DNA of 64,000 bases from a virus (taxonomy: Duplodnaviria > Caudoviricetes). The stretch lies in the IMG/VR virus record IMGVR_UViG_3300021133_000001, positions 32,001 through 96,000 of that record, one strand, 5' to 3'. Shown here in pieces: positions 7,343-27,108 of this stretch. Each line of letters begins with the position of its first letter. Positions within the stretch are counted from its first letter, which is position 1. The notes under the pieces are model-generated. The model saw only the letters and a program-made list of their open reading frames with translations, did no database searches and was not told the DNA's origin. The position numbers and the translations under genes were made by a program.

Positions 7343-7564
7343 CTACTTTATTTCTTTATTGTTATCTAACAATTTTTCAGTCTTCTCTAATATAGGACGT
7401 AAATAGTTTACTGTGAAGTACTCAGCTTCTTCGTTGCTACCTGCATATGCAACAACTTTAGCAACTTCACTAAGTTGGCGTAAGTTAAAATAAAGTTCGT
7501 CATTAGGGATGTGTTTAATGCGTTTCATAGTACCTATTATCGGTACTTTACACATAAACATCAA
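7343..7564 (-). CDS. Hypothetical protein (start uncertain)
   Basis: ORF overlapping the glf stop by 4 nt. Confidence 0.55.
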   Translation of the reverse strand: MMFMCKVPIIGTMKRIKHIPNDELYFNLRQLSEVAKVVAYAGSNEEAEYFTVNYLRPILEKTEKLLDNNKEIK

Positions 7565-8565
7565 GCTTTATTTTTAAGATAAGCTTCTATTTTTAGCATT
7601 GATTGCTTGACTGCCATCCACATATCAAGATAGGTGTATGTTGCTAATCTACCTGTAAAAATAACGTTATCTTCTACATCTGCAAGCTTTTTATATTTTG
7701 CATACAACTCCCCACCAGGTCCAAACGGCATCGGATAAAAAGGTATATTACTTTCATTGTGCTCAATGGATCGCTCGGAAGTAATAATCGTAGGTCCTTT
7801 ATGATTAACTGTAAAGTAGCTATGATCATACATTCTAGTAAACTGAACGTCCGCAGTATTAAAGTTAGTAACACAATTATTTAACCTTTTATACGAAAAC
7901 TGATGTATAAATTCCAACGATCTATATGGTAATCTACCGAACTTATAACCGTAAAACTCATCTATCTTACCTGTATAAACTGTAAGATCTGCTTTCTTAG
8001 TCATCCAAGTATACTGACTAACACCTAAATGTACTTTGATACCTTTAAGCATCTTTTCAAACATCTTTGTATACCCTTCTGCTGGCATGCATTGATACTT
8101 TTGACCTTCATACCAAGTAGGGTCTTCACAGTCTTTAGTTTTAGGTACCCTATTAGTAATTGATTTAGGTATTTGATCGAATGGAACACCCCATTGCTTT
8201 TCAGAATAGTCTTTAAAGATGTATTTTATTATTTCTTCTTGAGTCAACTCTCTACCAATATCTTTTACTGTCTTTTTGCTGTATGGTAAAGATATGGTAC
8301 CTAGCTCAGTTACACCTTTAGGTTTATTATCAAATGGAAACCATTCTGTGTATCTACTTAAGAACAAATACACTTCTTCATCGTCAGTATGAAAGAAGTG
8401 AGGGCCATAGCTATGTACTAAGGTACCGGCTACGTTAGAATCATAGCAATTACCACCAATGTGGTTACGTGTTTCATATATATCTACCTTATAACCGGCT
8501 TCTTTTAATAAAATAGCAGCAGTTACACCAGATAACCCACATCCAACTATCTTAGCAGTTTTCAT
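7561..8565 (-). CDS. glf: UDP-galactopyranose mutase
   Basis: GCGLSG FAD motif, HIGGNCYD, HSYGPHFFHT, YSEKQWG, LPYRSL, PFYP, GRLATYTYLDM. Confidence 0.93.
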   Translation of the reverse strand: MKTAKIVGCGLSGVTAAILLKEAGYKVDIYETRNHIGGNCYDSNVAGTLVHSYGPHFFHTDDEEVYLFLSRYTEWFPFDNKPKGVTELGTISLPYSKKTVKDIGRELTQEEIIKYIFKDYSEKQWGVPFDQIPKSITNRVPKTKDCEDPTWYEGQKYQCMPAEGYTKMFEKMLKGIKVHLGVSQYTWMTKKADLTVYTGKIDEFYGYKFGRLPYRSLEFIHQFSYKRLNNCVTNFNTADVQFTRMYDHSYFTVNHKGPTIITSERSIEHNESNIPFYPMPFGPGGELYAKYKKLADVEDNVIFTGRLATYTYLDMWMAVKQSMLKIEAYLKNKA

Positions 8566-9695
8566 TTTAACTTAGCTTCAAGAAAGCTCTTATTAGCAAT
8601 AAGTCTTTCTTTCCAATCAGCAAACTCAGGATCATCAATAATTTCGTTAACTAGATCTAAACCTTCTTGGTATCTACCTGTCCAGTAACATGATACAGAT
8701 AACTCATCGTTAACGTATTTTCCGTATACTTTTTCGTTGACAAACAATACATATTTTGTGTTAACTAATGCTAAAGACTTAGACTTACTTTCTTTTAAGT
8801 GTTTATAGCCTTCTTCCCACATTTGCAAATTGTTTAAGTACCTACCTAATATATAATGCGGTTCAGATCTATCCGGAAACATATTAATAGCAAGCTGCAT
8901 TTCGTATTTTATTTGATCAACAGGCGCTTTTAATTCTATTAAACATTGAGCTACTCTCATTTGAGATTCAAAGCATTCTTCTATCCAAGTATTTTTTAAT
9001 TTCAAGTATAGTCTATACCATTGCATAGACTCTTTCCACATACTACTGTCAAAGTAGCTTTGAGCAGTATAAAATGCAGAACGATTATTAAGACCATCTG
9101 GATCATCTATTAATGTCTCAAAAAATTGCTTAGTTAAACGTTCAGCATCATAAAAATATTTCTTAGGATCAAATGCTCTTGAGCCTATAGGGTCGCATCT
9201 AATGTAGAAGTCTTTATCAGATAAATCTCCTGCACTAAAATTTGGGTTTTCGACACATTTAATAATAGTGTGTGCAACCCCACAAAACCTCCAAGTATAT
9301 TTGCCACTATATAATATAGTAGTTTTAAAAGAAGAGGAGCCTCTTCTATTTAACAGGTAGTATGCATCTTTATTATCATCTGGTAATTCAATATCTCCAA
9401 ACAACAAATCATCTGCATCTATATGTAAAATGTAATCAGCTTTGCCTCTAGCACGTGCCATCATTAAGCACTTGTTTTTATCAAAGCCCTGCCAAGCATC
9501 TACAAAGAGCTCTCCTGGTATGTTTTTTTCTTTAAAGAAATCTCTTACAATATCACAAGTTCTATCGGTTGAACCTGTATCGCAAACGATCCAGTAATCA
9601 ATAGATTTATAAACAGACTCAAGAGTCTTTTGAATACAGTGTTCTTCGTTCTTGCACATTGTTGCAAAAACGATTGTGGGTCTTGTTTTAGTCAT
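8562..9695 (-). CDS. GT2 glycosyltransferase with C-terminal TPR repeats
   Basis: MCKNEE, DTGSTDRT, IDADD, then TPR-like helices (FYTAQSY, PDRSEPHY). Confidence 0.85.
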   Translation of the reverse strand: MTKTRPTIVFATMCKNEEHCIQKTLESVYKSIDYWIVCDTGSTDRTCDIVRDFFKEKNIPGELFVDAWQGFDKNKCLMMARARGKADYILHIDADDLLFGDIELPDDNKDAYYLLNRRGSSSFKTTILYSGKYTWRFCGVAHTIIKCVENPNFSAGDLSDKDFYIRCDPIGSRAFDPKKYFYDAERLTKQFFETLIDDPDGLNNRSAFYTAQSYFDSSMWKESMQWYRLYLKLKNTWIEECFESQMRVAQCLIELKAPVDQIKYEMQLAINMFPDRSEPHYILGRYLNNLQMWEEGYKHLKESKSKSLALVNTKYVLFVNEKVYGKYVNDELSVSCYWTGRYQEGLDLVNEIIDDPEFADWKERLIANKSFLEAKLK

Positions 9696-10720
9696 TATTC
9701 TTTTACGTTAAAGAAGTACAGATGAAATAATCTACCGTTTTCTTTTGTGTCTCCATAGTAGCCTGTTGCAGCATGTAACGCACGAGCGTTAAATATGACT
9801 AACCTATTATATACATTTGCTACTGTATCGACTATTTCAAAGTTATTTACATCATAGAAATTATTACCATTAAAGCTTAAAGAGTCTAAATCTTCTTTAG
9901 TACGCTCTAAGCGTTTTGCATCTTCATCTGTTGCAGCTGTCATTAAACCAGTAATTTTACTTTTTAATGTGCGGGTACCGGTTTGTAGTGGTGCATCTGG
10001 TGATAGATAGACCATCGCTGCGTACTGTTGTGTATCGTAGTGATAAACTACATTGTCTTTAGCGACACAATATTGAAATACTCCAGTTGCTCCAACAAAT
10101 TCAGTTACCTCCTTATTAAGCAATCTACTAAACTCTGCTTTTACCCAACTAGGTATATATTGTCTTTCTGTACGAGCACCTTTGTGATATTTTTCGTTAT
10201 GCTTAAATTCTTGTTGTAAAACGTAATCTCTAACAGCGTCTGGGTTTGCATAAAAGTTATCTACAACAATTAAATCTGGCCCTTTATATTTGTTAAGAGT
10301 AATAACACTATCTACAGGATCAGTAGGTTTAGTAATATGTATAACAGGAGATACTACTGTGATTGTAAATACATTATTACCCCTAACAGTAATTGAATAT
10401 GTTCCTGGTAAAGCATCAAATACTAATTCGAATCCACTTTTAAGAAATTTTTCTGAACTATTATATAAATAGTACTCCTTAACGTCTAGACGGTCAACAA
10501 CATTTATCCCGTATGTAACACGTGTGCCTGGTGTTTGACCTGTTATTCTAATATCATCAGCTGTAATTAGCGTGTCAGTACTAGTATCAACTACCCACCC
10601 TGTTACACGGCAACCTATACCTGTAGGATTAGTATTTTTGTTCATATCGTTAACATAACCGTTAACGTTACTTTGTGTATCAATATATCCTATAAAGTTT
10701 TTATTGTTTGTCTCGTGCAT
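9695..10720 (-). CDS. DUF6445-like 2OG-Fe(II) oxygenase with extra N-terminal beta domain
   Basis: VVDNFYANPDAVR, GART, HYD, VYLSPDAP, NVYNRLVIF..H, RLFHLYFF. Confidence 0.7.
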   Translation of the reverse strand: MHETNNKNFIGYIDTQSNVNGYVNDMNKNTNPTGIGCRVTGWVVDTSTDTLITADDIRITGQTPGTRVTYGINVVDRLDVKEYYLYNSSEKFLKSGFELVFDALPGTYSITVRGNNVFTITVVSPVIHITKPTDPVDSVITLNKYKGPDLIVVDNFYANPDAVRDYVLQQEFKHNEKYHKGARTERQYIPSWVKAEFSRLLNKEVTEFVGATGVFQYCVAKDNVVYHYDTQQYAAMVYLSPDAPLQTGTRTLKSKITGLMTAATDEDAKRLERTKEDLDSLSFNGNNFYDVNNFEIVDTVANVYNRLVIFNARALHAATGYYGDTKENGRLFHLYFFNVKE

Positions 10721-10734
10721 ATAAATATTTAAGG

Positions 10735-11946
10735 TTAGATCTCGGTTACTCCAGGTATAATGTATCTAAGTTGGTCGTTTTTAATAGCGGTTAAATGTGC
10801 AGTTACATACTCTATTTTATTCTGTTTATGGTAATCTGACGGACACCAATCTTTTACATAAGTGGATTGAAATTTCACTTTAGTATTGATAAAGTTTGCA
10901 AAAGTTTTTTTAGTATAATACCAAAATGAATTAGCGTTCCAATACGACGCATGTGTAGGGTCCTGAAAAGCTCCTCTACCATCTGTAGAAGGTGTACTTG
11001 AAAGTAACATACCACCGTGAGCAAGTAATCTCCACATTCTTTCCATCGATTTAACAGGATCTTTATATAACTGTAAAGCATCATCTGCTAATATAAGACC
11101 TACTGAATCTTCTTTAATTGTACCAATTGTATCTAAATCAATTTTAACGCAATCAGGTTTAGTATAACGTTTACTAATATCTACTATTAGTAAATTATTA
11201 TCTTTGCACCATCTACGCATCATCTGTTCAATATACTTTTCGTATAGTACCCAAGTATATTCTTGTATCCATTTGTTTAGTTCTTGTGAAGCAAAAGAAT
11301 TAGTAGCATGATAATAATACACATACAGTACTTTTTCTATTTTATACATCTTACCTTCAATATAAGTACGACACATTAAGTCTTGATCATCTAGCGCCTT
11401 TAATGTTTTATCGTGACCACCTAAACGTTTATAAAAATCTCTATTCCATACTCTAATATGATTAGGTGCAAACCAAATACGCGATACAGACTGAGGGGTA
11501 GGTAAGAACGTTCTGTTAATAGTGTATACTATGCCTTTATATGTATACGGATAATAAGCCCAGTTATTGTTAGAATTGAATACATTAGCTGTATTACCGG
11601 GCATTAAATCTATACCATCAGAATATATAAAATCACATACGTTTTCTTTAGCTGCTTTTAATATCTCTTCTACACAGTCTGGTGTAATTTCATCATCATG
11701 ATCAACTTCAGCTAGCCACTCTCCTAAACCTTGATTGAATGCATAGTTCTTAATTGCACCAATTAATTTACTATCTTCTAAGTACGGTACAATACGTATC
11801 CAATCTTCTTTAGGTAAAAAAGAAACATCAGCACTATTGTTGGGTACCACTACCCATTCAAAATCTTTACACGTCTGTATTTTAAGAGACTCGTAAAGTC
11901 TCATTAAATAGTCAGGTTTATGAGTTGGTGTTATTATTGATAACAT
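10735..11946 (-). CDS. GT2 glycosyltransferase fused to SAM-methyltransferase-like domain
   Basis: Likely start MLSIITPTH; VDHDDE; C-terminal WRLLAHGG...TPSTDGRGAFQDPTH. Confidence 0.8.
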   Translation of the reverse strand: MLSIITPTHKPDYLMRLYESLKIQTCKDFEWVVVPNNSADVSFLPKEDWIRIVPYLEDSKLIGAIKNYAFNQGLGEWLAEVDHDDEITPDCVEEILKAAKENVCDFIYSDGIDLMPGNTANVFNSNNNWAYYPYTYKGIVYTINRTFLPTPQSVSRIWFAPNHIRVWNRDFYKRLGGHDKTLKALDDQDLMCRTYIEGKMYKIEKVLYVYYYHATNSFASQELNKWIQEYTWVLYEKYIEQMMRRWCKDNNLLIVDISKRYTKPDCVKIDLDTIGTIKEDSVGLILADDALQLYKDPVKSMERMWRLLAHGGMLLSSTPSTDGRGAFQDPTHASYWNANSFWYYTKKTFANFINTKVKFQSTYVKDWCPSDYHKQNKIEYVTAHLTAIKNDQLRYIIPGVTEI

Positions 11947-12637
11947 GTTTCTTTTTAAATCGTTCAAATATTTCTTCTGTGCGTCTACCCCCGTTACCTA
12001 CCCCTTTTACTGTATATGTAAAACAAGCTTCCGGGTTTTTAATAATACGGTAACCCGCTTTAGAGATACGCACCCAGTAGTCCCAGTCTTCTATACTGTT
12101 GAGTGTAGGGTCAAAATAACCTACTTCCTTAATACATTCTTTTTTATGTATTACCCCTGAAACGAAGATAAAATTACCTCTAATGAGCTCTTCTGTGCCT
12201 GGAAACGTTTCTGGGTTTGATATACCAAAAGGTACTGCTACTGTACCATCTAAAAAACGGTGACGTACAGCAGAGTAAACCATGTCTGGTTTTTCTCTAT
12301 CTATTACTGCCATTTGCTTTTTAAGATAGTCTGAATCCCATACATCATCACTATCACAGTATGCTATGTATTCAAAATCTAAAGAATGATTTATAATATT
12401 AAGTGCTTGGTTACGCGCTGTACTGACCCCGCCATTTTCTTTAATTATAGTACACATTTTCATTTGATCAAAACCAAGCCCGCTTAAAGAACGTACTAAG
12501 CTGTTCTCAGATTTAGATCCGTCATCAACTATAAATAATGTCCAGTCTTTATACGTCTGTGCAAACACAGCTTGTACAGATTTAACGAGAAGGTCTTTCT
12601 CGTTATAATATGGCATTACTATAGCTACTCTACTCAC
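11918..12637 (-). CDS. GT2 glycosyltransferase
   Basis: IVMPYYN, IVDDGS, NGGVSTARN, YCDSDD, EDWDYW. Confidence 0.92.
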   Translation of the reverse strand: MSRVAIVMPYYNEKDLLVKSVQAVFAQTYKDWTLFIVDDGSKSENSLVRSLSGLGFDQMKMCTIIKENGGVSTARNQALNIINHSLDFEYIAYCDSDDVWDSDYLKKQMAVIDREKPDMVYSAVRHRFLDGTVAVPFGISNPETFPGTEELIRGNFIFVSGVIHKKECIKEVGYFDPTLNSIEDWDYWVRISKAGYRIIKNPEACFTYTVKGVGNGGRRTEEIFERFKKKHVINNNTNS

Positions 12638-13398
12638 TTAAGAATTTCGTTACGTATTTTAGTTGCTGATATTTCTTGTAGTTTCTTATCAAGATCAATC
12701 TGCTCAATCTTATAACCTACATCTCTACCATAAAATATGTTAGTGATATTAGGGACACGTATTATAGTGTATTTACCTTCATAATCAAGCATACCTTTAC
12801 GTATATTAGCTTCTACTTCTTCAAATGAGAAAGGATTCTTTTCATCTGTACCTTGTGTATCTCTAATAGCGATACAAACTTGCCCGACCCGATTAATACC
12901 CTCTACAATTAAAGCTTTGTGGCCATCGTGGAATGGTTGATATCGACCGAGCATAAATGCTGTAGGTGCTTTCGAATTAAACGTAGGAATAAGTTGCTTT
13001 TTAATTTTAGTAGCCCAATACAAAGGCGAACCCTCATCAGTCACCACTACATCTGGATCATCTGGTGGTACAAATAGCTTAGTTGTATCGGCAAAGTCTC
13101 TAACCGGTGTTCTATTTACCCAAACTATAAATGCGTCCCCAAAAGCAGCTCTCGTTTCAGGAATAGGGCAAACAAAATCAGCCACAGCAAATTGCCCAGA
13201 ACGAGTAACGATATCACAAAGCAATCCCATTCTTCGGGCTTGCTCCAATCGATCCTCCACGGAAAACTTAAGATCCTTATTAATTTCTTTGCGTATTTCA
13301 TCAGCGTTAAAATGTACAGCGTTTAGTAACTTTGCTAATTCTAAAGCAAGAGTTGTTTTACCAGCGCCGGGTAATCCCATTATTAAGATCTTCTTCAT
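12634..13398 (-). CDS. Adenylylsulfate-kinase-like domain fused to HIGH-type nucleotidyltransferase
   Basis: GLPGAGKTT P-loop, NADEIR, RLEQARR, DFVCP; C-terminal GRYQPFHDGH and ISATKIR. Confidence 0.8.
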   Translation of the reverse strand: MKKILIMGLPGAGKTTLALELAKLLNAVHFNADEIRKEINKDLKFSVEDRLEQARRMGLLCDIVTRSGQFAVADFVCPIPETRAAFGDAFIVWVNRTPVRDFADTTKLFVPPDDPDVVVTDEGSPLYWATKIKKQLIPTFNSKAPTAFMLGRYQPFHDGHKALIVEGINRVGQVCIAIRDTQGTDEKNPFSFEEVEANIRKGMLDYEGKYTIIRVPNITNIFYGRDVGYKIEQIDLDKKLQEISATKIRNEILK

Positions 13399-13432: not shown

Positions 13433-14074
13433 TTACATTTTATCGAACTTACTTGCTAATCCTGCTATATCAGATTGTTGAAACTTGAATGCTAATGTTG
13501 CACCTGCAGGTCCTAATAATGCTATTAAACCTGATGGTAAATGAGTAGACAACGCACCTAAATGGGGTATAACATATGATTGTATCATTGGTATTGCTGC
13601 TACTGCTGCTGATATAAGAAATGCTTTAGACTTGGCAATGTTAACTTTTTTAATTTGATCTTTACAACGTTCTTTATGAACCTTCATTAATGTTGCGCTA
13701 ATAGCAGCATCTGCCATAATCATTTTGTTATATGCTTCTCGGTCAAAGTAAGCAATCTTAACTGGCGTTTTAGCCTTAACAGTAGCGTTGCGTGGTGCAC
13801 CAGATACTAAAGCTCCTTCTCCAACGAACACTCCCGGTGGCAAGGTTGCAAGAAACACTTCCTTATCTCCTGCTTGTTTAACGACATCAACTTGCCCGGA
13901 TAGAACCACAAACATGAACTCTCCGATGTCGCCCTCTTTAATGATAACCTCACCAGCTGGGTGCTCTTTTGCGGTTGGAAAGGTAGCAATCTTTTTTACA
14001 ATCTTTGGTGGAACACCAGCAAATAAAGCAGATGCTTGAATCTCTTCAAATTTAACTTTTAGTTTCTTAGCCAT
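13433..14074 (-). CDS. Cyclic-nucleotide-binding domain protein with C-terminal hydrophobic helices
   Basis: IIKEGDIGEFMFVVLSGQV and phosphate-binding cassette FVGEGALVSGAPRNATVKA; hydrophobic tail, no CRP helix-turn-helix. Confidence 0.88.
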   Translation of the reverse strand: MAKKLKVKFEEIQASALFAGVPPKIVKKIATFPTAKEHPAGEVIIKEGDIGEFMFVVLSGQVDVVKQAGDKEVFLATLPPGVFVGEGALVSGAPRNATVKAKTPVKIAYFDREAYNKMIMADAAISATLMKVHKERCKDQIKKVNIAKSKAFLISAAVAAIPMIQSYVIPHLGALSTHLPSGLIALLGPAGATLAFKFQQSDIAGLASKFDKM

Positions 14075-14258
14075 TATCTACTGGTACAAGCACTGAGCCC
14101 TCAGAAGTATCAGCTAACACGTACATTTGGTTCTGTTTAGAGCGTAATTTGCTTGCTGGTATATCAGTCAATAAGATTTTATTGTCTGGTTGAAGGACTG
14201 TCATAAAGTCTTTGGAAGGGAAGTATACGGGTAAGGTTTTGACAAATGCTTCGTTCAT
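14067..14258 (-). CDS. Small hypothetical protein co-transcribed with the cNMP protein
   Basis: 63-aa ORF overlapping the cNMP gene start; TAAGTA 7 nt upstream. Confidence 0.65.
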   Translation of the reverse strand: MNEAFVKTLPVYFPSKDFMTVLQPDNKILLTDIPASKLRSKQNQMYVLADTSEGSVLVPVDNG

Positions 14259-14265
14259 ATAGTAT

Positions 14266-14279
14266 TACTTAGCTAAATA
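14266..14279. promoter_or_regulatory. Back-to-back late promoter pair
   Basis: TACTTA-GC-TAAATA gives TAAGTA (minus) and TAAATA (plus) inside a 26-nt divergent gap. Confidence 0.6.
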
Positions 14280-14284
14280 TAGAT

Positions 14285-14743
14285 ATGAAATACCTGCTAT
14301 TATTAGCATTTATGGCAAGTCTTGCCAACGCAACACAACAGACTTTCGCATTTAAGTCATCAGCTTTCCAAACTAACGGGTCATTTTCTGGCTACGAGTT
14401 AACTTTAGAAAACACCGGTTACAATAGACAGCAAACTATTATAGCTACTCAGGAAGCTGCTGCTTCTACAGCTGCTGCTGCTGCACAAAACACCCCTATC
14501 AATCAGTTTATTAGTGGTTTACAGGCACGTATCTATTCACAAATTGCTGCTAATTTAACTTCTCAATTGTTTTCTACTACTGCTACACAAGGTACATTTA
14601 ATTTGCCTTCAGGTGCTACAGTTAACTGGGTAGAGAATAAAGGCATTGCTACTTTACAGATTTACGATCCAACTACTAACACAACAACATCTATACAAAT
14701 ACCTGTAGGTACGTTATTAGCAGCTGGTGCTACTGGAGGTTAA
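14285..14743 (+). CDS. csgF: Curli assembly protein CsgF-like
   Basis: Signal peptide, FAFKSSAF, QFISGLQARIYSQIA, C-terminal IYDPTTNTTTSIQIP; directly upstream of csgG. Confidence 0.78.
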   Translation: MKYLLLLAFMASLANATQQTFAFKSSAFQTNGSFSGYELTLENTGYNRQQTIIATQEAAASTAAAAAQNTPINQFISGLQARIYSQIAANLTSQLFSTTATQGTFNLPSGATVNWVENKGIATLQIYDPTTNTTTSIQIPVGTLLAAGATGG

Positions 14744-14744
14744 T

Positions 14745-15545
14745 ATGAAATACGTTTTACTACTTTGCTTACTTTTAACAGGGTGCCAGACTTACAAAAT
14801 GGCTGTACATCCTTATGAAGCTCAAGATAAACCTGTATTACAGGAGAGTCCTTTAGTTAAGCAGTTAAGAGCACTGCCACCTTTAGATGCACCACAAATG
14901 ACTATTGCTGTGTATAAGTTTAGCGACTTAACCGGACAGCGTAAAACGTCAAACAATTTAGCTCTATTCAGTTCTGCTGTTACCCAGGGTGCTGAGTCAT
15001 ATTTGGTAGAAAGTTTACAGGCAGCAAACAACGGCGGCTATTTTAAGGTATTAGAGCGTACAGGGCTTGATGATATTGTTAAAGAGCGTCAAATGTTAAG
15101 GCAGGCGAAAGAAGACTTTGAAAATACTAAATCACCTGGTACGTTACCTCTATTGTTTGCGGGGGTATTGGTTGAGGGCGGTATCATTGGGTACGATTCA
15201 GACATTATTACAGGGGGTATTGGTGCAAATGTACTCAACATTGGTGCACAAGAACAATACAGCAAAGATGTAGTAACTGTTACGTTACGATTGGTAAGTG
15301 TAAATACTTCGGAAGTTTTATTGAGCGTTACCACCACCAAGACTGTATTTTCCGTTAATATAAATGGCAATTTAATGAGTTGGTACTCAAATGGAACAAA
15401 ATATTCTGAAGGAGAGCTTGGATTCGCAAATAATGAATCCGGTAACGTTGCTGTTAGAGCTGCTATTGATCAAGCAGTTATAGAGCTAATCCATAAGGGT
15501 GAGAAGCAAGGATTGTGGAAGTTTAAGGGTAATAGTAAAAACTAA
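14745..15545 (+). CDS. csgG: Curli secretion channel CsgG (outer-membrane lipoprotein)
   Basis: Start re-assigned to MKYVLL; lipobox LTGC; AVYKFSDLTGQRK, FSSAVTQGA, VLERTGLDDIVKERQ, EGGIIGYD, DVVTVTLRLVSV. Confidence 0.92.
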   Translation: MKYVLLLCLLLTGCQTYKMAVHPYEAQDKPVLQESPLVKQLRALPPLDAPQMTIAVYKFSDLTGQRKTSNNLALFSSAVTQGAESYLVESLQAANNGGYFKVLERTGLDDIVKERQMLRQAKEDFENTKSPGTLPLLFAGVLVEGGIIGYDSDIITGGIGANVLNIGAQEQYSKDVVTVTLRLVSVNTSEVLLSVTTTKTVFSVNINGNLMSWYSNGTKYSEGELGFANNESGNVAVRAAIDQAVIELIHKGEKQGLWKFKGNSKN

Positions 15546-15589: not shown

Positions 15590-16333
15590 ATGAAACACCT
15601 TACTAAAACTATAGCTATATTCCTACTAATCGGATTAGCACGCGCGTTTGGGCAAAACGCTTTATATGTACAACAGATTTCAACTTCAGCCATTGTCAAT
15701 GTCTTACAAGCCGGTGGCGCTAACCGTATTGGTAGCTCTGGTTTGAACTCTATTTTTAACGGTGATACAGCTTTTATAGACATTAAGCAGGTAGGTAATG
15801 GTAATGCTCTTGATTTTAATTTTACAAGTGCATCAAATACTAACTTAAAAATATATAATACCGGAGACAGCAACACTCAAGGTCTATATATTAATGGTGG
15901 TAGTAACACGTTTGATTTAGAGTTTACCGGTTCAAGCAATACTATGGTATTTAATAGTGATGCAAGTAACTCTGGTACAACACAGGCTAATGTCTCCCAC
16001 GGTACCTATACATTTACAGTTGGTGGTAATAGTAATGCGTTTAATATCGGTACTGATACTGGAACATATAACTCTTTAAACTACACAGTTGCTGGTAATA
16101 GTAACGTATTTAACATTTTACAAGACGGAGCAGTAAGTGGTACTTCAGGTCACAATCAAACAGTGATAGTTGATGGTAGTAGCAATAATGTGTATATTAA
16201 TCAGAACGGTACAAGTGCTAATAGCTTATACTACAAGTTAACAGGCTCAAGTACCAATACTTCTATTACACAAGGACCTACAGGTACAACACCACTTAAT
16301 ATCGCTACTACTGCTGGTATCACGCATCCTTAA
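15590..16333 (+). CDS. Curlin-repeat protein (CsgA/CsgB-like)
   Basis: Signal peptide; repeats QVGNGN, TGDSN, GGSN, TGSSN, GGNSN, AGNSN, DGSSNNVYINQNG; N/G/S/T-rich; follows csgFG. Confidence 0.78.
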   Translation: MKHLTKTIAIFLLIGLARAFGQNALYVQQISTSAIVNVLQAGGANRIGSSGLNSIFNGDTAFIDIKQVGNGNALDFNFTSASNTNLKIYNTGDSNTQGLYINGGSNTFDLEFTGSSNTMVFNSDASNSGTTQANVSHGTYTFTVGGNSNAFNIGTDTGTYNSLNYTVAGNSNVFNILQDGAVSGTSGHNQTVIVDGSSNNVYINQNGTSANSLYYKLTGSSTNTSITQGPTGTTPLNIATTAGITHP

Positions 16334-16338
16334 TATGT

Positions 16339-17313
16339 ATGAAAAAGAGTGAAAAGCTTTTATTCACTCTTCTTGTCATTTTAATTTTTTTGCTATGGTG
16401 TAGCCTCGTATATGGTTCAGCTGGACAGGTAACAGAGATAACCGGCCCCACTCAAATTACGAGAGGGTCGGATAAAATTATAGCTGCTCTTAAAACCGGT
16501 ATTGAAAGTAATGATCGGGTAGAGACACTCAACAGTAAGACCGGTATTACCTTTGCGGATGAAACTCACGTTACAATAAGTGAACATAGTAAATTACTGG
16601 TGGACGATTTTGTGTATGATCCTAAAAGTAGTTCAGGTAAAATAGGATTAAAAGCACCTCTCGGTACAGTTAGATACTTTTCTGGTAAAATAGCGCACAA
16701 TAATCATAACAACGTAAATGTGCAAACGCCTACAGCGAGTATAGCTGTTCGTGGTACTGACTTCTCTATGACTGTAGATGAAATGGGTAAGAGTTTAGTT
16801 ATTTTATTACCAACTAAGATAGGCAATCGTTATGTGGTTGGTAAGATTGATGTTACTACAATGGCTGGTACTGTTACTTTAGATAAAGCATTTGAAGGTA
16901 CATTTGTTAGTACTAACTTTACAATGCCCACACCCCCCACTATATTCAGATTAGATGAAGGTGGTGTTAATAATAACCTGTTACTGGACTCTCCTAAATC
17001 AGCTGCTTCAGAAGCTGCTGAAAAAGCTGATAAAGCTGCAGCAGAACAACAGCTACAACAGGCTGCAGCGGTGGCACAGTTATATGCTACTGCTCAGGCT
17101 ATACAAAAAATTGATAGCGCTACATTTGTATTTAAACAAGACGATGCAGACGCTTCTAAAAATAAGCTTAAGAGTAACTTTAAAGGCAATGTAATAAACA
17201 TTATTATACCGAATGGAGAAAACGTTACTGTTAACTATGTTTATCAGGGCGGCAAAGTATCAGCTAAGAATGGTACTGGCACCGGGGTAATAATGAATAT
17301 CGAGCAAAGGTAG
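16339..17313 (+). CDS. FecR-domain periplasmic protein
   Basis: N-terminal hydrophobic segment; GIESNDRVET, ITFADET, LVDDFVYDP, GTVRYFSG, QTPTASIAVRGTDF. Confidence 0.85.
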   Translation: MKKSEKLLFTLLVILIFLLWCSLVYGSAGQVTEITGPTQITRGSDKIIAALKTGIESNDRVETLNSKTGITFADETHVTISEHSKLLVDDFVYDPKSSSGKIGLKAPLGTVRYFSGKIAHNNHNNVNVQTPTASIAVRGTDFSMTVDEMGKSLVILLPTKIGNRYVVGKIDVTTMAGTVTLDKAFEGTFVSTNFTMPTPPTIFRLDEGGVNNNLLLDSPKSAASEAAEKADKAAAEQQLQQAAAVAQLYATAQAIQKIDSATFVFKQDDADASKNKLKSNFKGNVINIIIPNGENVTVNYVYQGGKVSAKNGTGTGVIMNIEQR

Positions 17314-17441: not shown

Positions 17442-17675
17442 TTAGTTTTCTAACGTTTGTTTAAGTTCTTTGGAAAGTTTATCGTACTTTAATGATTGTA
17501 GTTGTACTGTAACACACCAAGTATTCATTGCTATACATAGTACATCAAAAAACAGATCAAAGTAGCTATGTTGTATTATATGATATATACCAAATGCAAT
17601 ATAACTAACTACTATAACCGAACTAACAGCTATAAGCGCATATACAAAATTACGAAACGTAAAGATCATATTCAT
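17442..17675 (-). CDS. Small two-TM membrane protein, antisense insert
   Basis: Two hydrophobic segments; TTGATT...GATAAT promoter-like sequence upstream. Confidence 0.6.
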   Translation of the reverse strand: MNMIFTFRNFVYALIAVSSVIVVSYIAFGIYHIIQHSYFDLFFDVLCIAMNTWCVTVQLQSLKYDKLSKELKQTLEN

Positions 17676-17721: not shown

Positions 17722-19776
17722 ATGAAGCACACGTATAAAATACTGCTTACTGGGTTAGCTATCCTTGCCAGTCTTGTAGTATTAAGAATAAAGGACCCAT
17801 TCTTTATTGAAACAGCCCGCTTAAAAGGATTAGATTACTATCAAAGGCAACAAAGTAAAGTAAAAAGTAATAATATTGTTGTAGTAACCATAGACGAGGC
17901 GTCGTTAGACAGGTTTGGCCAGTTCCCCTGGTCCAGAGCAGTATTAAGCGAAGGTTTGGAAAAAGCATTTAATAGTGGTGCGCAAGTTGTAGTTATGCCT
18001 ATTCTATTTTCTGAAAAAGATAGATTAGGTGGTGATACTATATTTAATATGACTTTGCAGAAATATCCAGTAATAACTGCACAATCAGCTGCACAAAAAG
18101 GCAAAGGACAGCCTGTACCAAGAGGCTTGGCTACTATAGGTGACGGGTTAGGAGATTGGTTGTTTACGTACCCTGCTGCTATTGGTCCTACTAAAGAAAT
18201 AGGGCAATCATCTGCCGGGGTCGGTATGTTACTAACTACCCCTGAACTTGATGCTGTTACAAGACGTTTACCTTTAGTGGTTAAAGTAAAGGGAGAGGTA
18301 TACCCCACTATACCTTTAGAAGCATTGCGTTTATTTGGTGGTGAAGAGTCTTATCAAGCTAAAGTAGATGAAGCAGGAGTACAAGCTATTAGAGTTAAAG
18401 GTACCCCGCCTATTACTACTGATGCTAATGGTAGAGTGTGGATAAACTTTAAATATACATTTGATTCGGTTTCATTTGCAGATGCTAACTGGTCTATTGT
18501 TAAAGATAAGATAGTATTCATTGCCTTAACCGCAGAAGGCCTAAATAATACTGTAGCTACTCCTGTTGGTATTTCACAAGGATACGAGATATCTGCTCAA
18601 ACCTTGCAAATGTTAATAGATAATAGCAGATTACAAAGACCTTCAACATTCGATCTATATGAACTTACAGGTGGTGTTATACTTGCTATTATTCTTATTG
18701 TTGCTGCTTGTTATTTGGGGTATATCCTAAATGGTATACTAATCACTACATTTTTATGTGTACCTTATTTTATTGGATCTCGTTTATTTGTTAATCACGG
18801 ATATCTTACGGATTATACCTGGCCTACCTTAGCGGTATTATTACCCTGGGTAGGTGCTATATTCTTTAGATTTGTAATGGAGTTTAAGTTAAAGCAGCAG
18901 ATCAAGAAGCAATTTGGTACTTATTTAAGTGCAGCATTAGTAGAGAAACTACAAAAAAATCCAGGTTTGTTAAAGCTTGGTGGAGATGAAAGAGAGTTAT
19001 CTATTATGTTTACTGATGTAAGAGGCTTCACAACTATATCAGAGCATTATGGTAAAGACGTACAAGGTCTGACAATGATAATGAATCGTTATATGACTGC
19101 TATGACTCAAGCCATATTAGATAACGACGGTACCCTCGACAAATATATTGGTGACGCACAAATGGCTTTCTGGAACGCTCCTTTAGATGATCCAGATCAT
19201 GCTCGTAATGCTGTTAAGACTGCTATGCAAATGCTAAAGAGACTTGACACGTTTAATGAAGAAATAACTAAAGAAGGTATACCAGCATTTGGTATGGGTT
19301 TAGGTATTAATACAGCTTCTGTAGTAGTAGGTAATATGGGTAGTACTCAGCGATTTGACTATACTTGCTTAGGTGATGGTGTTAATTTGGCTTCTCGTCT
19401 AGAAGGACAATCAAAACCATACGGGGTACGTATTATTGTTGGACCAGTAACACACGAGTACGTAAAGAATGACTACCAATGTTTTGAGCTTGATTGTATA
19501 GCAGTTAAGGGTAAAAAAGAAGGTGTTAGAATTTACACTATATTAGAAAATAGCTTAATCGAGATGGTTACAGAAGTAAACAGAATGCATGAAGCATTCT
19601 TAATAGATTATAGAACTCAAAAATGGGATGAAGCTGTACAACTAGCTACAGCATTAAAGAAGTATAATCCTGAACTTAAAAAATACTACGAGGCTATGCT
19701 AGAGAGAATAAAAGAGCTCCAAGGAGCTAACCTTGGAGCTGATTGGGACGGAGTTTATAGAGCTACGTCGAAATAA
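17722..19776 (+). CDS. CHASE2-domain membrane receptor adenylate cyclase (class III)
   Basis: CHASE2 motifs IDEASL..GQFPWSR, PELDAVTRRLPL, TDANGRVWINF; 3 TM helices; cyclase FTDVRGFT, DKYIGDA, GINTASVVVGNMGS, DYTCLGDGVNLASRLEG. Confidence 0.93.
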   Translation: MKHTYKILLTGLAILASLVVLRIKDPFFIETARLKGLDYYQRQQSKVKSNNIVVVTIDEASLDRFGQFPWSRAVLSEGLEKAFNSGAQVVVMPILFSEKDRLGGDTIFNMTLQKYPVITAQSAAQKGKGQPVPRGLATIGDGLGDWLFTYPAAIGPTKEIGQSSAGVGMLLTTPELDAVTRRLPLVVKVKGEVYPTIPLEALRLFGGEESYQAKVDEAGVQAIRVKGTPPITTDANGRVWINFKYTFDSVSFADANWSIVKDKIVFIALTAEGLNNTVATPVGISQGYEISAQTLQMLIDNSRLQRPSTFDLYELTGGVILAIILIVAACYLGYILNGILITTFLCVPYFIGSRLFVNHGYLTDYTWPTLAVLLPWVGAIFFRFVMEFKLKQQIKKQFGTYLSAALVEKLQKNPGLLKLGGDERELSIMFTDVRGFTTISEHYGKDVQGLTMIMNRYMTAMTQAILDNDGTLDKYIGDAQMAFWNAPLDDPDHARNAVKTAMQMLKRLDTFNEEITKEGIPAFGMGLGINTASVVVGNMGSTQRFDYTCLGDGVNLASRLEGQSKPYGVRIIVGPVTHEYVKNDYQCFELDCIAVKGKKEGVRIYTILENSLIEMVTEVNRMHEAFLIDYRTQKWDEAVQLATALKKYNPELKKYYEAMLERIKELQGANLGADWDGVYRATSK

Positions 19777-21442: not shown

Positions 21443-22954
21443 TTATGGATACTGGTCTTTACAATCTAAATAAAATCTTGTCATTTCTGGGAACACACTT
21501 AAAAAGCTTGTACCACGACGAGAATCACACTCATCAATAAACTGGTGAAACGCTCTACGTATTACTGCAATGTCTGAACGACCAATACCTTCTACAATAG
21601 CTTTTTTCATTACTTCTAATACACGTTCCATTTCTTGTGCACAAAGTTCTGGAAAACCAGGCTTAGTAACTCTATAACCACCAGGTATGTGTACATCTAC
21701 TTCAACTTTGCGTATACGCTCGTTCATATACTGTACACACTCTTCCATATAGCGTAAATAATCTTCAGTTAATATCCAAGCACTCATATACTCAGGTTGT
21801 CTAAGATATGGTATACTAATAACTAAAGGTTGCACTCTATCAAGCGATCTAGTATGTTTCTCAATTAAATAGTAACTGTCTGTTAAAAAGTCTTTAAACG
21901 AAGTAACAGACATTGCATTATATGTGCACATGAATACCATTTCTACTTTAGGGCATTCAGTGAATATACGATCAACGTTTTCATACCAAGTTTTATAATT
22001 CAAGCCTGCACGTATATATTCACCTCTCTTACCATAAGCTTCACCACTTGTATAAACTGTAATACGTTTAGCAGCGTTTGCTTCTGCAATTCTGTTTAGA
22101 TATGTTATAAGCTTATCTATATAGAGTTTAGGTGCACCTAAGTTAGTATTAACACTGAACATCATCTCAGGTTGAGGATGTTCAATAAAGTAATCCATCA
22201 ACTTAAATGTGTTTTTACTGAGTAGTGGTTCTCCACCGGTTAATCTTAATTCTCGTAATTCTCCACTAGCTATAATACCAGGAAACCATTCCCAAAAAGC
22301 CTTAATGTAAGGGTTACTATCTTCATCTTCAATTGGTAACCTAGACTCCATTTCTAACTGCTTTAGAGAGTTAGTTATAAATGCACCAGCGTGTATGGAA
22401 CCGTGTTCTCTAATTTCTTTCGTCCAGGTAGACGAATAAGCTGGTGTACAATACAAACACTTAAAGTTACACGCATTTGAAAAGTCTAATTCTAAAGACT
22501 TCGGTATAATATCTACATCCCAAGGCATCTGAGGTACTGTATTAATACGATCATCATTCCAAGATGTAGCACTCTTTCTTACCCTATCACTAAACAAATT
22601 CGGGTTATTTAAATCTTCAATACGCCAACAAAAATTACACTCTTCCGGACGCTTACCCTCAAGCATCATTTTACGTTTTTCTTTTTTATCGTTAGTATTG
22701 TGTAAAGCAGAAACGTTCTTCTTAAGCTCGTCTAACGGTATCTTGTGTGGTGGACAATGATGACAGCTATGAGTGGTACCGTTAGTAAGGTGTATAGTTA
22801 CTTGATTCCATTTAGCTAAACAAAAGCTTGTACTAGTGGCATCTAGTTTGTCTTTTACAGCTTGGAGTCTCTGTACAGCATTAGCTGCTTCAGCATTCAA
22901 TGGCTTACCATCAGCTGATTTGGGTGAAATCTTGTTCTCGGTGTCTGTAGACAT
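21443..22954 (-). CDS. Radical SAM protein with N-terminal twitch-like Cys cluster
   Basis: CNFKCLYC (CxxxCxxC), TGGEPLL; N-terminal CLAKW, SCHHC, CNFCW. Confidence 0.88.
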   Translation of the reverse strand: MSTDTENKISPKSADGKPLNAEAANAVQRLQAVKDKLDATSTSFCLAKWNQVTIHLTNGTTHSCHHCPPHKIPLDELKKNVSALHNTNDKKEKRKMMLEGKRPEECNFCWRIEDLNNPNLFSDRVRKSATSWNDDRINTVPQMPWDVDIIPKSLELDFSNACNFKCLYCTPAYSSTWTKEIREHGSIHAGAFITNSLKQLEMESRLPIEDEDSNPYIKAFWEWFPGIIASGELRELRLTGGEPLLSKNTFKLMDYFIEHPQPEMMFSVNTNLGAPKLYIDKLITYLNRIAEANAAKRITVYTSGEAYGKRGEYIRAGLNYKTWYENVDRIFTECPKVEMVFMCTYNAMSVTSFKDFLTDSYYLIEKHTRSLDRVQPLVISIPYLRQPEYMSAWILTEDYLRYMEECVQYMNERIRKVEVDVHIPGGYRVTKPGFPELCAQEMERVLEVMKKAIVEGIGRSDIAVIRRAFHQFIDECDSRRGTSFLSVFPEMTRFYLDCKDQYP

Positions 22955-22965
22955 ATATTAATTTA

Positions 22966-23085
22966 CTAGTCGTATATGTGTTTATCCAGCTTGTTACTCT
23001 CTATAGCAAGCTTAATCATACGCTTTCTTTGCCATTTTTTATACCAGGATTTTACTGTTTTAAATAAGTTTTTTATTAAAGTCAT
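22966..23085 (-). CDS. 39-aa basic micropeptide ending DKHIYD (not in ORF track)
   Basis: MTLIKNLFKTVKSWYKKWQRKRMIKLAIESNKLDKHIYD fills the intergenic gap and resembles the 2286..2402 peptide. Confidence 0.55.
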   Translation of the reverse strand: MTLIKNLFKTVKSWYKKWQRKRMIKLAIESNKLDKHIYD

Positions 23086-24070
23086 ATGTTTTGTATAGGT
23101 TGTAATAAGCTTCAGCTAGTTCATTCATATAGCTAAGTCCAGCATGTGTACCGTCCCTAGCTCTATCGTCTTTTCTTACTTTTATTATCTTTAGTCCTTC
23201 ATCTTCTAACATTGTATTAGATGTAAAGAATTTTTCAATAGTTTCTTTCTTTAATTTAAAGAATGTTTCATCCCAAATATACCACATCCATTTTATGTTT
23301 CTGGATTCAAGTGTTTCTTTAATAAGAGTAAAGGCTGTAACCATTTCGTAAAAACTATGCATACATGAAGTATAGTCATAATACTGTATATCCTTAGCTT
23401 TCGGATCGTTATGATAATCATCACACTTATATCTTCCGTTTCTAGTAGCTTCTATATCAGGTTCTGTGTTTATGTTATACGAGGTATTTCTAGTTATTAA
23501 ACCATCATCAATATTACCTATATATTCTTTTCTAAAAATCATCGGAAAGTCAAACACCACTAAATCAGGATAATCTTCTTTTTTAAGAGTGCTTATAATT
23601 TGATAACACACTCGCGCAATAGTATCTATACCAACCCCGCCTATTCCGTAGTTTTTTAAGTTCCACTTACCTAATTTATTAGCTAATAAATACGGCCACG
23701 TGTGTTCGTCAGGTAAAGAAACACCAAACGTAAAACTACAACCGAATGTAAAGAGTTTACGAGGATCTTCAGGTTTATAGTTAGGATACTCTCTAAAGCA
23801 ATTCTCGCCAAATGTGTAAAGTATTTTTGTATCTAGATATGTAGGAGTTACAGCTGGACCTTCATGAGTCAGTCGTTCTATTTGTTTGTTTCTATTTTTC
23901 AACCCGTCTGTTGGTGCAAGCGGAAATGTTCTAGGATCCCAAATAGTAGAAATAATCCTATCCCAATCACTACTAGGTTTAATATGTAGTAGATCAGATT
24001 CCGGTAAAGACATTCTCGCACATTTATTAATAAGCGGTGCTCTATTTAATTCTGCTCTGAAATCTTTCAT
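23060..24070 (-). CDS. SGNH/GDSL-like esterase-fold protein
   Basis: FGCSFTFG, TWPYLLA, NYGIGG, ARDGTHAG (DxxH). Confidence 0.7.
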   Translation of the reverse strand: MKDFRAELNRAPLINKCARMSLPESDLLHIKPSSDWDRIISTIWDPRTFPLAPTDGLKNRNKQIERLTHEGPAVTPTYLDTKILYTFGENCFREYPNYKPEDPRKLFTFGCSFTFGVSLPDEHTWPYLLANKLGKWNLKNYGIGGVGIDTIARVCYQIISTLKKEDYPDLVVFDFPMIFRKEYIGNIDDGLITRNTSYNINTEPDIEATRNGRYKCDDYHNDPKAKDIQYYDYTSCMHSFYEMVTAFTLIKETLESRNIKWMWYIWDETFFKLKKETIEKFFTSNTMLEDEGLKIIKVRKDDRARDGTHAGLSYMNELAEAYYNLYKTYDFNKKLI

Positions 24071-25035
24071 TGTTTTAAATAAAGTTTGGCAAAACCGTTT
24101 GCAATTTGCTCCATAGGCTCAAAACCAAAATGACTACTATCACGAGATTTTCTATCTGTATGTTTCAATACCATTAAGCCATCTCCATCCATTAGTGTAT
24201 TGTTCGTGGTTAAATACTTTTCCAGAGCAGGTTTTTCAAGTTGACAGTAGTTGAAAGACCATGAATACCAGTACCATGGTAAATTACGAGCATTACAACT
24301 TTCTCTTATAATATTAAAAAAACGTAAACCATGCATAAATGCCTCTACCATAGAGGTATACGCATAATGTTTTAATCTAACATGAGCAGAATTGTAAGAA
24401 CGGTATACTGGTCCTATTTTTATATTTTCTCCTACCGGATGTTTATAAAAATTATCTCTCTCCTCATCGTATGTAGTTAAGAAGTTATAGTTATATATTA
24501 TACTCGTTTCTATAGGCTTACTTTCAATATTACCTAGATAATAATCTCTCATTATTTCGGGCAATAAAAAGAAAACTGCATCAGGATAATCTTCTTTAGG
24601 TGTAGTAGTAATGACTTGATAAAAAATTTCAGTCATCGCTTGTATAGAAACACCCTGTTTACCAAAGTTATACACTTCCCATTCAGGTCCTAATTTTTTA
24701 GCTAATAGATATGGCCAGGTATGCTCATCTGGTAAACCGTGTCCTAAGGTAAAACTACAGCCAAAACAATATAGCTTTTTAGTTTTTTTATCAGTAGTAT
24801 TTTTTATTCCAGGGTAGTATCTGTAACCATCTTTATTTATATGGTATTTTATTTCTACATCTTTATATACGGGATTAACATTTTGCTTGTTTTCATTAGG
24901 CATCCAGTCTAATACTACGTCATTACCTAAATAGGTTTGCACTGGAAAACAATTAGTCCAGTGCAAACCATAAAACGAAATATTATCTTCTAAGATTTTA
25001 TTAAAGTCTTTTCGTTCTCTAACTAGACTTTCCAT
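24067..25035 (-). CDS. SGNH/GDSL-like esterase-fold protein (paralog)
   Basis: FGCSFTLG, TWPYLLA, NFGKQG, SRDSSHFG. Confidence 0.7.
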   Translation of the reverse strand: MESLVRERKDFNKILEDNISFYGLHWTNCFPVQTYLGNDVVLDWMPNENKQNVNPVYKDVEIKYHINKDGYRYYPGIKNTTDKKTKKLYCFGCSFTLGHGLPDEHTWPYLLAKKLGPEWEVYNFGKQGVSIQAMTEIFYQVITTTPKEDYPDAVFFLLPEIMRDYYLGNIESKPIETSIIYNYNFLTTYDEERDNFYKHPVGENIKIGPVYRSYNSAHVRLKHYAYTSMVEAFMHGLRFFNIIRESCNARNLPWYWYSWSFNYCQLEKPALEKYLTTNNTLMDGDGLMVLKHTDRKSRDSSHFGFEPMEQIANGFAKLYLKQ

Positions 25036-26500: not shown

Positions 26501-26501
26501 T

Positions 26502-27107
26502 TTATAAAATTTGATCAGGTGTTAGCTTTTTAAGAATTAATAACTTATCTGAACTTAGTACTTCAAATTTACCTGCATATAGTCTTTGTAAGAACAGTAG
26601 TGCTTCTTTATAGTGTACTGCAACCCCGCCTAACAAATTAATTTTATGCTCAGAATCATAGTTATTAACAACTAATATACCATCGTCTTTTAAGAGTAAA
26701 CTAAAAGCCATAGAAATGATATTTAATGCATCAATACTATTAGTCGTGTAATTGTAATGTATTACTTTAAATTTGTTCCAGCCAGTTTCTTTAATAGCTA
26801 GTTCACATAGTATATGAGGTATACTACCTTTCATTTTAACTACTCTATGAGACCAACCACTATCTGCAACGTTATAATCGAACTTGCGTTCAATCTCTCG
26901 TTGCCACCAACTGTCAATACTGTATACTTTTGATTTAGGGTGATCTACTAGTGTTTCAGCGAGCCATATAGTTGCAGGACCTTCTCCAGCACCAATATCT
27001 AGTATATTAGTGCGGCTATGAACAAAAGACTCTCTATAAGGTTCATCTAATACTTTTTCCCAAATAGGTAAGTTTTTAGTAAATGTATCTAATGTAAATG
27101 TAGGCAT
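26502..27107 (-). CDS. Class I SAM-dependent methyltransferase-like protein
   Basis: ILDIGAGEG, YSIDSW, LLKDDGILVVNNY. Confidence 0.7.
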   Translation of the reverse strand: MPTFTLDTFTKNLPIWEKVLDEPYRESFVHSRTNILDIGAGEGPATIWLAETLVDHPKSKVYSIDSWWQREIERKFDYNVADSGWSHRVVKMKGSIPHILCELAIKETGWNKFKVIHYNYTTNSIDALNIISMAFSLLLKDDGILVVNNYDSEHKINLLGGVAVHYKEALLFLQRLYAGKFEVLSSDKLLILKKLTPDQIL

Positions 27108-27108
27108 A

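Follow-up and report, generated by a model that had tools for sequence, protein, structure and literature searches.

The 64,000-nucleotide stretch of phage DNA analysed here (the window) covers positions 32,001 to 96,000 of the IMG/VR virus record IMGVR_UViG_3300021133_000001, a 140-kb record with a CheckV completeness estimate of 44%. On its minus strand (13433..14074) lies a gene for a 213-residue cyclic nucleotide (cNMP)-binding protein, hereafter the sensor, which ends in a hydrophobic helical module that is particular to its family. The gene was delimited by its open reading frame (ORF), a match to Pfam PF00027 and homologous clusters. We propose that the sensor is a dedicated, lineage-specific receptor for cyclic AMP (cAMP) that acts downstream of a CHASE2 cyclase encoded by the same phage, is associated with the membrane and possibly affects permeability or the timing of lysis. 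Taken as a whole, this reading has, in our judgement, an even chance of being correct. The sensor bears on what phage-made cAMP acts upon and on the purpose of the phage curli module.

By fold and cassette, in sequence and in the predicted model, the sensor is a member of the cyclic nucleotide-binding (CNB) domain superfamily. Its single Pfam domain is cNMP_binding (PF00027; residues 36-121, E 4.6e-21, 75 bits against a cut-off of 27.5), and the same residues form a predicted CNB beta-roll (13712..13969, minus strand) in AlphaFold and Foldseek. AlphaFold models the N-terminal ~140 residues, which contain this domain, with a predicted local distance difference test (pLDDT) score of ~90. In Foldseek, the domain resembles the CNB domains of CRP/GlxR, PKG, PKA and MlotiK1/SthK, with E values of ~1e-11 and a probability of 1.0 to many of them, and the best PDB relatives of the family profile are the regulatory domains of PKG and PKA and the CNB domains of SthK and MlotiK1. 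The phosphate-binding cassette GEGALVSGAPRNATV (residues 85-99; 13778..13822, minus strand), read directly in the sequence, runs G85-E86-G-A-L-V-S-G-A-P94-R95-N-A-T98-V. Across 82 aligned family members G85, E86, G87, R95 and A97 are invariant, which includes both the ribose-binding Glu86 and the phosphate-binding Arg95. An initial annotation of the window had described a cNMP sensor with an intact cassette and no helix-turn-helix (HTH). Both statements hold: the cassette is conserved throughout the alignment, neither HTH_Crp_2, Crp nor any other domain was found in the sensor by Pfam at E values up to 0.01, and the C-terminus consists of long helices throughout.

Behind the CNB domain, a C-helix that forms a putative lid (residues 123-143; 13646..13708, minus strand) is helical in both AlphaFold models and carries the motif H133-x-E-R136-C137-K138-D, in which R136 is invariant and H133, C137 and K138 are kept in at least 90% of the 82 aligned sequences. 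The lid is followed by a basic stretch (K143, K148, K150) and then by hydrophobic helix 1 (residues 151-169; 13568..13624, minus strand), one face of which bears a narrow polar or helix-kinking stripe formed by S/T155, P162 and Q/K165-S/N166. A neutral to acidic loop of nine residues (170-178), between P170 and the invariant P180, leads to hydrophobic helix 2 (residues 179-196; 13487..13540, minus strand), which contains P180 and a central G188-P189 and is closed by the invariant K197. Both helices were assigned by hydropathy and column statistics, and they are the two hydrophobic stretches noted in the initial annotation, conserved as such in the family and of moderate hydropathy. The protein ends in a putative amphipathic charged helix (residues 198-213, FQQxDMxxLVxKLDKL; 13436..13483, minus strand), which is conserved and is modelled as a helix by AlphaFold with low confidence. 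Within the C-terminal 85 residues R136, P180, P189 and K197 are invariant across the family, and hydrophobic character is retained at 152-164 and 183-196.

A profile of these 85 C-terminal positions, searched against 1.84 billion representative proteins, returned the family itself and fragments of it only, so that the module is not fused to other sensors; a 685-residue protein with seven short hydrophobic stretches that also matched was judged spurious. On this search the output module is unique to the sensor family. No paralogue of it was found in four related phage records, and Pfam searches with the C-termini at permissive E values gave sub-threshold noise only, from DUF7940 (E 0.03-0.07, 14 bits against a cut-off of 27) and from unrelated families.

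We consider it rather likely that this module is embedded in, or associated with, the membrane. Positive charges flank the helices on their outer sides (K143/K148/K150 before helix 1, K197/K209/K212 after helix 2) and the loop is uncharged or acidic, a layout that fits a hairpin with both ends in the cytoplasm (N-in/C-in). Position 165 covaries with positions 181-182: Q165 pairs with P/T/S-G/A, and all 15 sequences with K165 have D/N-E/Q there, which fits the pattern expected of two touching antiparallel helices.

Several observations weigh against a membrane hairpin. The covariation at position 165 may stem from a single evolutionary event or clade. Helix 1 has Kyte-Doolittle means over 19 residues (KD19) of 1.4-2.25 and helix 2 of 1.0-1.76, compared with 1.8-2.7 for the real transmembrane helices of the neighbouring cyclase; the soluble CNB core itself peaks at 1.47, and helix 2 is no more hydrophobic than that. 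Insertion energies estimated roughly in the manner of Hessa are positive for both helices, and uninterrupted hydrophobic runs are just 13-14 residues long in divergent family members. In residues 140-213 AlphaFold reaches a pLDDT of just 40-50, whether 26 or 82 sequences are supplied; the deeper run of 82 (pLDDT 43-49) did not yield a fold for the output module. Moreover, no holin or other membrane-protein family matches the module in Pfam, PHROG or hhalign searches. Hydropathy at this moderate level leaves both the hairpin and its place at the membrane as inferences. Weak hydropathy does not exclude membrane insertion of the sensor, since a holin-family protein of related phages (phrog_6384 type) is no more hydrophobic, with KD19 values of 1.63, 1.58 and 1.08 against 1.89 and 1.28 for the sensor helices.

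Marginal hydropathy and the lack of a confident membrane prediction would also suit a soluble protein, in which the C-terminal helices form an oligomerisation bundle and the sensor acts as a buffer or sponge for cAMP or other cNMPs. Such a protein could shape the phage cAMP pulse, starve host CRP or blunt host cNMP immunity of the Pycsar/Pucsar type. Phages are known to use sponges against immune nucleotides (PMC13712596), and the best PADLOC match of the CNB domain is the CNB part of PycTIR (E 5.3e-11), a domain-level match as for any CNB. A soluble buffer leaves unexplained the pattern of positive flanks and neutral loop, the conserved hydrophobic module with its Pro and Gly residues, and the genomic pairing with the cyclase that would supply the ligand. 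We hold this alternative, which the initial annotation had offered as a cNMP sponge, to be rather improbable.

The sensor family comprises ~80 clusters at 90% identity, all of 213-220 residues and all metagenomic, and its ESM-Atlas cluster is 97% viral. It occurs at 25 IMG/VR loci, among them a complete 297-kb genome (G001) and contigs of 220 kb and 185 kb, and the window belongs to a phage lineage with genomes of roughly 300 kb. The family was not found in 50,697 GenBank phage records and has no PHROGs family. It is also absent from 185,579 prokaryote species (one genome each), which gave generic CNB domains only, at no more than 37% identity; the matches in this bacterial scan were generic CNB proteins such as CNB-SpoIIE and MscS-CNB. 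As far as these databases reach, the family is phage-only, seen in viral and metagenomic sequence alone.

The presumed source of the ligand lies in a block of five genes that stands head-to-head with the sensor side. The block begins 26 nt past a 63-residue ORF (orf63) that overlaps the sensor start, and its order is csgF, csgG, a repeat protein, FecR and the cyclase, all on the plus strand. The CsgF-like gene (14285..14743; Pfam PF10614, E 5.3e-9) is followed by a gene for a CsgG-like outer-membrane pore lipoprotein (14727..15545; PF03783, E 3.5e-48) and by one for a 247-residue secreted protein with Asn/Gly/Ser/Thr-rich repeats (15590..16333), which has no Pfam match and occupies a curlin-like position. 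Next come a FecR-domain protein (16339..17313; PF04773; phrog_37870, E 4.6e-66) and the 684-residue CHASE2 class III adenylate cyclase (17722..19776; CHASE2, E 4.4e-41; Guanylate_cyc, E 8.4e-20). This is the published module of type VIII secretion system (T8SS) genes, FecR and adenylate cyclase that is known from pelagiphages and from the OM43 phage Melnitz (PMC9599517, PMC9004378). The window block shares its order with those of HTVC008M and Melnitz, with identities of 43-45% for CsgG, 44-46% for FecR and 40-42% for the cyclase, and the repeat protein matches the annotated curlin-associated proteins of both phages at 28-29%.

The closest solved relatives of the cyclase are adenylate cyclases, namely Pseudomonas aeruginosa CyaB (2.9e-29) and cyanobacterial CyaC, and the enzyme retains the Asp residues that bind metal, Lys in DKYIGD and Thr in DYT, as well as the Asn/Arg pair. 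These relatives and signature residues lead us to expect cAMP as its product. Because this class III cyclase with adenylate-cyclase signatures is encoded 3.6 kb from the sensor and co-occurs with it wherever the sequence suffices, the ligand of the sensor is probably cAMP made by the phage cyclase. In the complete genome G001, the cyclase gene is split (L033 3430-6297; G001:C1 ~81.4-84.3 kb) into parts encoding residues 1-586 and 586-684. The 804-nt insertion holds a 267-residue ORF with a DUF723 domain (E 4.9e-7) and looks like a mobile intron or an element of the homing-endonuclease type.

Sensor and cyclase are linked in two arrangements. Head-to-head adjacency is found in the window and in L002, L003, L009, L010, L011, L012 and L027, down to 42% sensor identity, and is partly present in L006 and L206. 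In a second clade, the cyclase block lies 13-16 kb upstream of the sensor on the same strand; its members are the complete genome G001, G003 and the contigs shared by L018/L142, L019/L177 and L020/L143. The cyclase is present in 13 of 13 sensor-bearing contigs with enough sequence, a count that leaves aside L007 and L014 as well as contigs too short or ending on the relevant side. The 297-kb G001 encodes exactly one PF00211 gene and one PF00027 gene. A second, weak CNB match beside the G003 cyclase proved to be a cupin.

The reverse dependence is not seen, and this counts against the sensor as the general receptor of the phage cyclase. The cyclase occurs on at least 585 IMG/VR contigs, and among the top 34 cyclase loci with at least 6 kb of upstream sequence csgF is present in 31 and the sensor adjoins in just 2. 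Nine larger cyclase-bearing IMG/VR records are without any CNB domain, three of which are 76-84% complete at 128-140 kb, and the HTVC008M and Melnitz genomes encode no CNB protein. With so many cyclase phages devoid of a CNB protein, the cyclase does not need the sensor as a receptor; the sensor was added in the ~300-kb lineage and is no obligatory part of the module. In addition, synteny among related phages is weaker evidence than synteny among unrelated genomes.

Should the sensor be such a lineage-specific receptor, we envisage the following sequence of events. The cyclase would make cAMP upon a periplasmic or envelope cue, and cAMP would bind the canonical CNB domain, whose site is observed to be intact. 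The lid C-helix would then close over the nucleotide and, as it appears to run straight into the C-terminal module, could pass this movement on. The module, with its two Ala/Gly/Pro-rich hydrophobic helices, short loop and amphipathic basic tail, would most likely lie within or at the inner membrane, its two ends facing the cytoplasm, and cAMP would alter its insertion or oligomeric state. As the output, the inner membrane would change in permeability, or a membrane partner, for instance a holin, would change in activity. In the most speculative step, this would set the timing of lysis or of a related late envelope event. The central link, in which lid movement driven by cAMP alters insertion or oligomerisation and hence permeability or partner activity, is possible, though we have considerable doubts about it.

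A lysis-related output of the sensor is plausible, if far from shown. Phage CsgG/F have been proposed to regulate lysis timing (Buchholz et al.; PMC9004378). At least 20 related loci, including sensor-bearing contigs, carry a gene for a 105-residue holin-family protein 0.8-1.7 kb past the cyclase and on the same strand (phrog_6384, E 3.6e-8; Pfam LydA holin, E 3.4e-4, below the Pfam cut-off), which ties the phage T8SS-FecR-cyclase block to a lysis gene. Examples are L038 2585-2902 (plus strand), L033 7499-7816 (plus strand) and at least 20 more (L132-L146, L150, L177, L178). A glycine-zipper lipoprotein and a small cupin precede this gene. In the window itself, a 77-residue ORF (17442..17675, minus strand) lies antisense within the 408-nt gap between fecR and the cyclase gene. 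Its product has a charged tail and two helices of strong hydrophobicity (KD19 2.33 and 1.58), and its best PHROG match, a weak one, is a holin (phrog_6854, E 5.9e-4). A partial copy is found at the edge of L127.

For the sensor itself, a language-model search with residues 140-213 placed small phage clusters annotated 'holin family' nearest, at a non-significant score of 0.82; as a third of shuffled sequences reach this score, these neighbours are only a lead. Homology of the sensor C-terminus to the 105-residue holin family was rejected (hhalign probability 0.4%), and the sensor has no Pfam or PHROG holin match. Of the suggestion in the initial annotation that the protein is a holin regulator, there thus stands a circumstantial case, made up of the holin-family genes in and beside the cyclase block and the language-model neighbours, while kinship with a holin family did not emerge.

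A different use of the same parts is a membrane-tethered, cAMP-dependent adaptor that forms no pore. Here, the hairpin would anchor the sensor or bind a membrane protein, and cAMP would switch the interaction; candidate partners are the CHASE2 cyclase (as feedback), the Sec or T8SS export route, and the glycan-synthesis enzymes encoded downstream. The evidence for cAMP sensing and membrane association speaks for an adaptor as much as for the receptor model that we favour, and a short, weakly hydrophobic hairpin suits an anchor better than a channel wall. The gene context can be read in the same sense: the sensor heads a run without terminators that comprises a fusion of a P-loop kinase and a nucleotidyltransferase (12634..13398, minus strand, 34 nt downstream of the sensor; Pfam; phrog_10255), three family 2 glycosyltransferases (GT2), DUF6445 and a UDP-galactopyranose mutase. 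The terminator scan found none between the sensor and the kinase fusion gene. The P-loop kinase adjoins the sensor in two different gene orders, being directly downstream in the window and L009 and directly upstream in the other clade. This adjacency may reflect functional coupling or inherited gene order, and if the synteny is inherited it would not speak for an adaptor. A plain anchor would not require the invariant P180, G188-P189 and K197 or the conserved amphipathic tail, and no partner has been identified. On balance we see the adaptor as a minority option.

Kinases of this type (APS-kinase/AAA_28-like) also lie beside the sensor in L004 (6641-7426), L033 (18606-19043) and L007 (9619-10395). 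Some are fused to an HxGH nucleotidyltransferase with weak similarity to a nicotinamide mononucleotide (NMN)-adenylyltransferase PHROG, and the L004 kinase adjoins a sulfotransferase-like gene. A few kb upstream of the sensor, L004 (2081-5087) and L033 (15679-17652) encode a 657-660-residue protein with a two-partner-secretion (TPS) domain and DUF5649 repeats. L004 further holds a 229-residue ORF with an ADP-ribosyltransferase domain of the exotoxin type (precomputed Pfam PF03496).

The small upstream gene orf63 (14067..14258, minus strand), recognised as an ORF and by its conservation, overlaps the sensor start, as the initial annotation had seen, by 8 nt within ATGGCTAA. The 7 clusters of its family share 74-96% identity and 30 invariant residues, and its position is constant, always between csgF and the sensor and always overlapping the sensor start. 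Between the window and L009, orf63 differs in 9 synonymous and 4 non-synonymous codons. Other branches of the sensor family have just 23-35 nt where orf63 would be. It has no Pfam, PHROG or PADLOC match, and the small ORFs ahead of csgF in HTVC008M and Melnitz include no detectable relative of it. Judging by conservation and gene arrangement, orf63 is a real gene of one subclade only that is translationally coupled to the sensor. Since it is confined to this subclade, it cannot be an essential partner of the whole family. The initial annotation had suggested that it may regulate the sensor.

The divergent intergenic region between orf63 and csgF (14259..14284) measures 26 nt and carries a TA-rich near-palindrome that could be a bidirectional promoter. 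The near-palindrome is kept at the same position in L002, L010, L011, L012 and L027. It reads TATTTAGCTAAGTA in the window, TACTTATAAGTA in L002, L011 and L012, and TACTTATAAATA in L027. For the exact T4 late promoter TATAAATA there is no enrichment: the window has 10 occurrences against 15.7 expected.

At its widest, the proposal would join all of these genes into a self-contained trans-envelope pathway, which would run from a surface fibre and the CsgG/F pore through FecR and the CHASE2 cyclase to cAMP. In this pathway the sensor would be an effector of a new kind, a cAMP-gated membrane hairpin akin to a holin or antiholin, that lets the state of the envelope or the surroundings time lysis or block superinfection, and orf63 would be a subclade-specific modulator. 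We regard this extended version as unlikely.

Elsewhere in the window, auxiliary genes for envelope and glycan functions are dense at 7561-12637, 21443-28947, 32538-33764 and 62078-63454, all on the minus strand. They include the three GT2 glycosyltransferases, DUF6445, the UDP-galactopyranose mutase, a carbamoyltransferase, a UDP-glucose dehydrogenase, a radical-SAM protein and a tryptophan-halogenase-like flavoenzyme (E 6.6e-86). Two tail-fibre proteins of ~1200 residues with collagen repeats and a C-terminal endosialidase chaperone (Peptidase_S74), and a third collagen-like fibre gene, are found among 49799-53395, 55499-59119 and 60428-61348, again all on the minus strand. A rise in G+C content to 0.48 at 56-58 kb corresponds to the collagen repeats.

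Phage genes for curli-type secretion, FecR and adenylate cyclase are widespread, as the contig count given above illustrates, and were reported at all 65 ocean stations analysed (PMC9599517). In one lineage, the sensor family offers a small, concrete and testable candidate for the receiver of phage-made cAMP. Should its action be at the membrane, it would be the first membrane effector under the control of a cyclic mononucleotide that serves a phage's own programme and not bacterial defence, and the lysis-timing hypothesis for phage CsgG/F would become directly testable. If it is a soluble buffer, it would still be without precedent, within the literature searched, as a cAMP-binding protein of a phage that has a phage cyclase as its counterpart.

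Among known systems, transcription factors of the CRP/FNR type (CRP, GlxR, Mycobacterium tuberculosis Crp) share with the sensor an N-terminal CNB beta-roll, an intact cassette, a long C-helix and a similar length. Receptors of this type are the top Foldseek matches, and source databases automatically annotate family members as CRP-like. The sensor can be likened to a CRP in which another module stands in for the DNA-binding domain. Unlike CRP/FNR proteins, it has no winged HTH, so it is not assigned to them; residues 144-213 form the two hydrophobic helices and the amphipathic tail instead, and by sequence its CNB domain is nearer to the PKA/PKG and SthK/MlotiK1 domains than to CRP. Cyclic-nucleotide-gated channels (MlotiK1, SthK, HCN/CNG) have an N-terminal pore of six transmembrane helices, whereas the sensor starts 8 residues before the CNB helices and has just two short hydrophobic helices after the domain. 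It does not belong to them either.

Pycsar and Pucsar defence (PycTIR, PycTM, PucTM) likewise pairs a CNB-type sensor with a cyclase of class III fold, and includes membrane effectors (PMC11224242; bioRxiv 10.64898/2026.08.12.744502). By this general analogy the sensor could be a suicide or superinfection-exclusion effector carried by the phage, that is, a cNMP-activated membrane disruptor triggered by a competing phage, and the initial annotation had pointed to CBASS and Pycsar in this sense. The comparison does not carry far: kinship with CBASS or Pycsar finds no support, and the sensor is not a Pycsar member. The system is phage-borne and not a two-gene defence operon, and the sensor family is absent from bacterial genomes. 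No stand-alone PycC or PucC lies beside the sensor; the cyclase, 3.6 kb or 13-16 kb away, is a CHASE2 receptor within a T8SS/FecR block. Pycsar/Pucsar products are cyclic CMP, UMP or GMP. Lys in DKYIGD, Thr in DYT and the PDB relatives of the phage enzyme indicate an adenylate cyclase, with cAMP as the expected product. PADLOC matches are limited to sensor residues 8-158 and correspond to the CNB part of TIR effectors, and the sensor is no CNBD-TIR protein. The transmembrane effectors PycTM and PucTM are pJV1-spdB3 hexamers with three transmembrane helices (3TM) per subunit (bioRxiv 10.64898/2026.08.12.744502), and no PADLOC model of a transmembrane effector matches the sensor at E values up to 1. 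We consider an exclusion effector of this kind very improbable.

Architectural parallels are also found among membrane proteins. Bacterial CNB-DUF1003 proteins, a shape neighbour of the sensor in the ESM Atlas, also place a two-helix membrane domain after a CNB domain. Their helices are far more hydrophobic (KD19 2.4-2.6), and homology to DUF1003 (PF06210) was rejected, with no Pfam match and an hhalign probability of 0.09%. Class II holins and pinholins have a small two-helix N-in/C-in layout, weakly hydrophobic Ala/Gly-rich helices and a charged tail, which the sensor module may share; the charge pattern of the sensor fits this layout, and its hydropathy is marginal for it. The search results given above do not place the sensor in a holin sequence family, and, unlike in class II holins and pinholins, its module sits behind a 145-residue sensor domain. 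To our knowledge, no holin has its module fused behind a domain of this kind. The neighbouring block is homologous to the pelagiphage and Melnitz T8SS-FecR-cyclase module (PMC9599517, PMC9004378, PMC7029224) and has the same gene order. Those phages, and the papers that describe them, are without a cNMP-binding protein, whereas the ~300-kb lineage carries the sensor.

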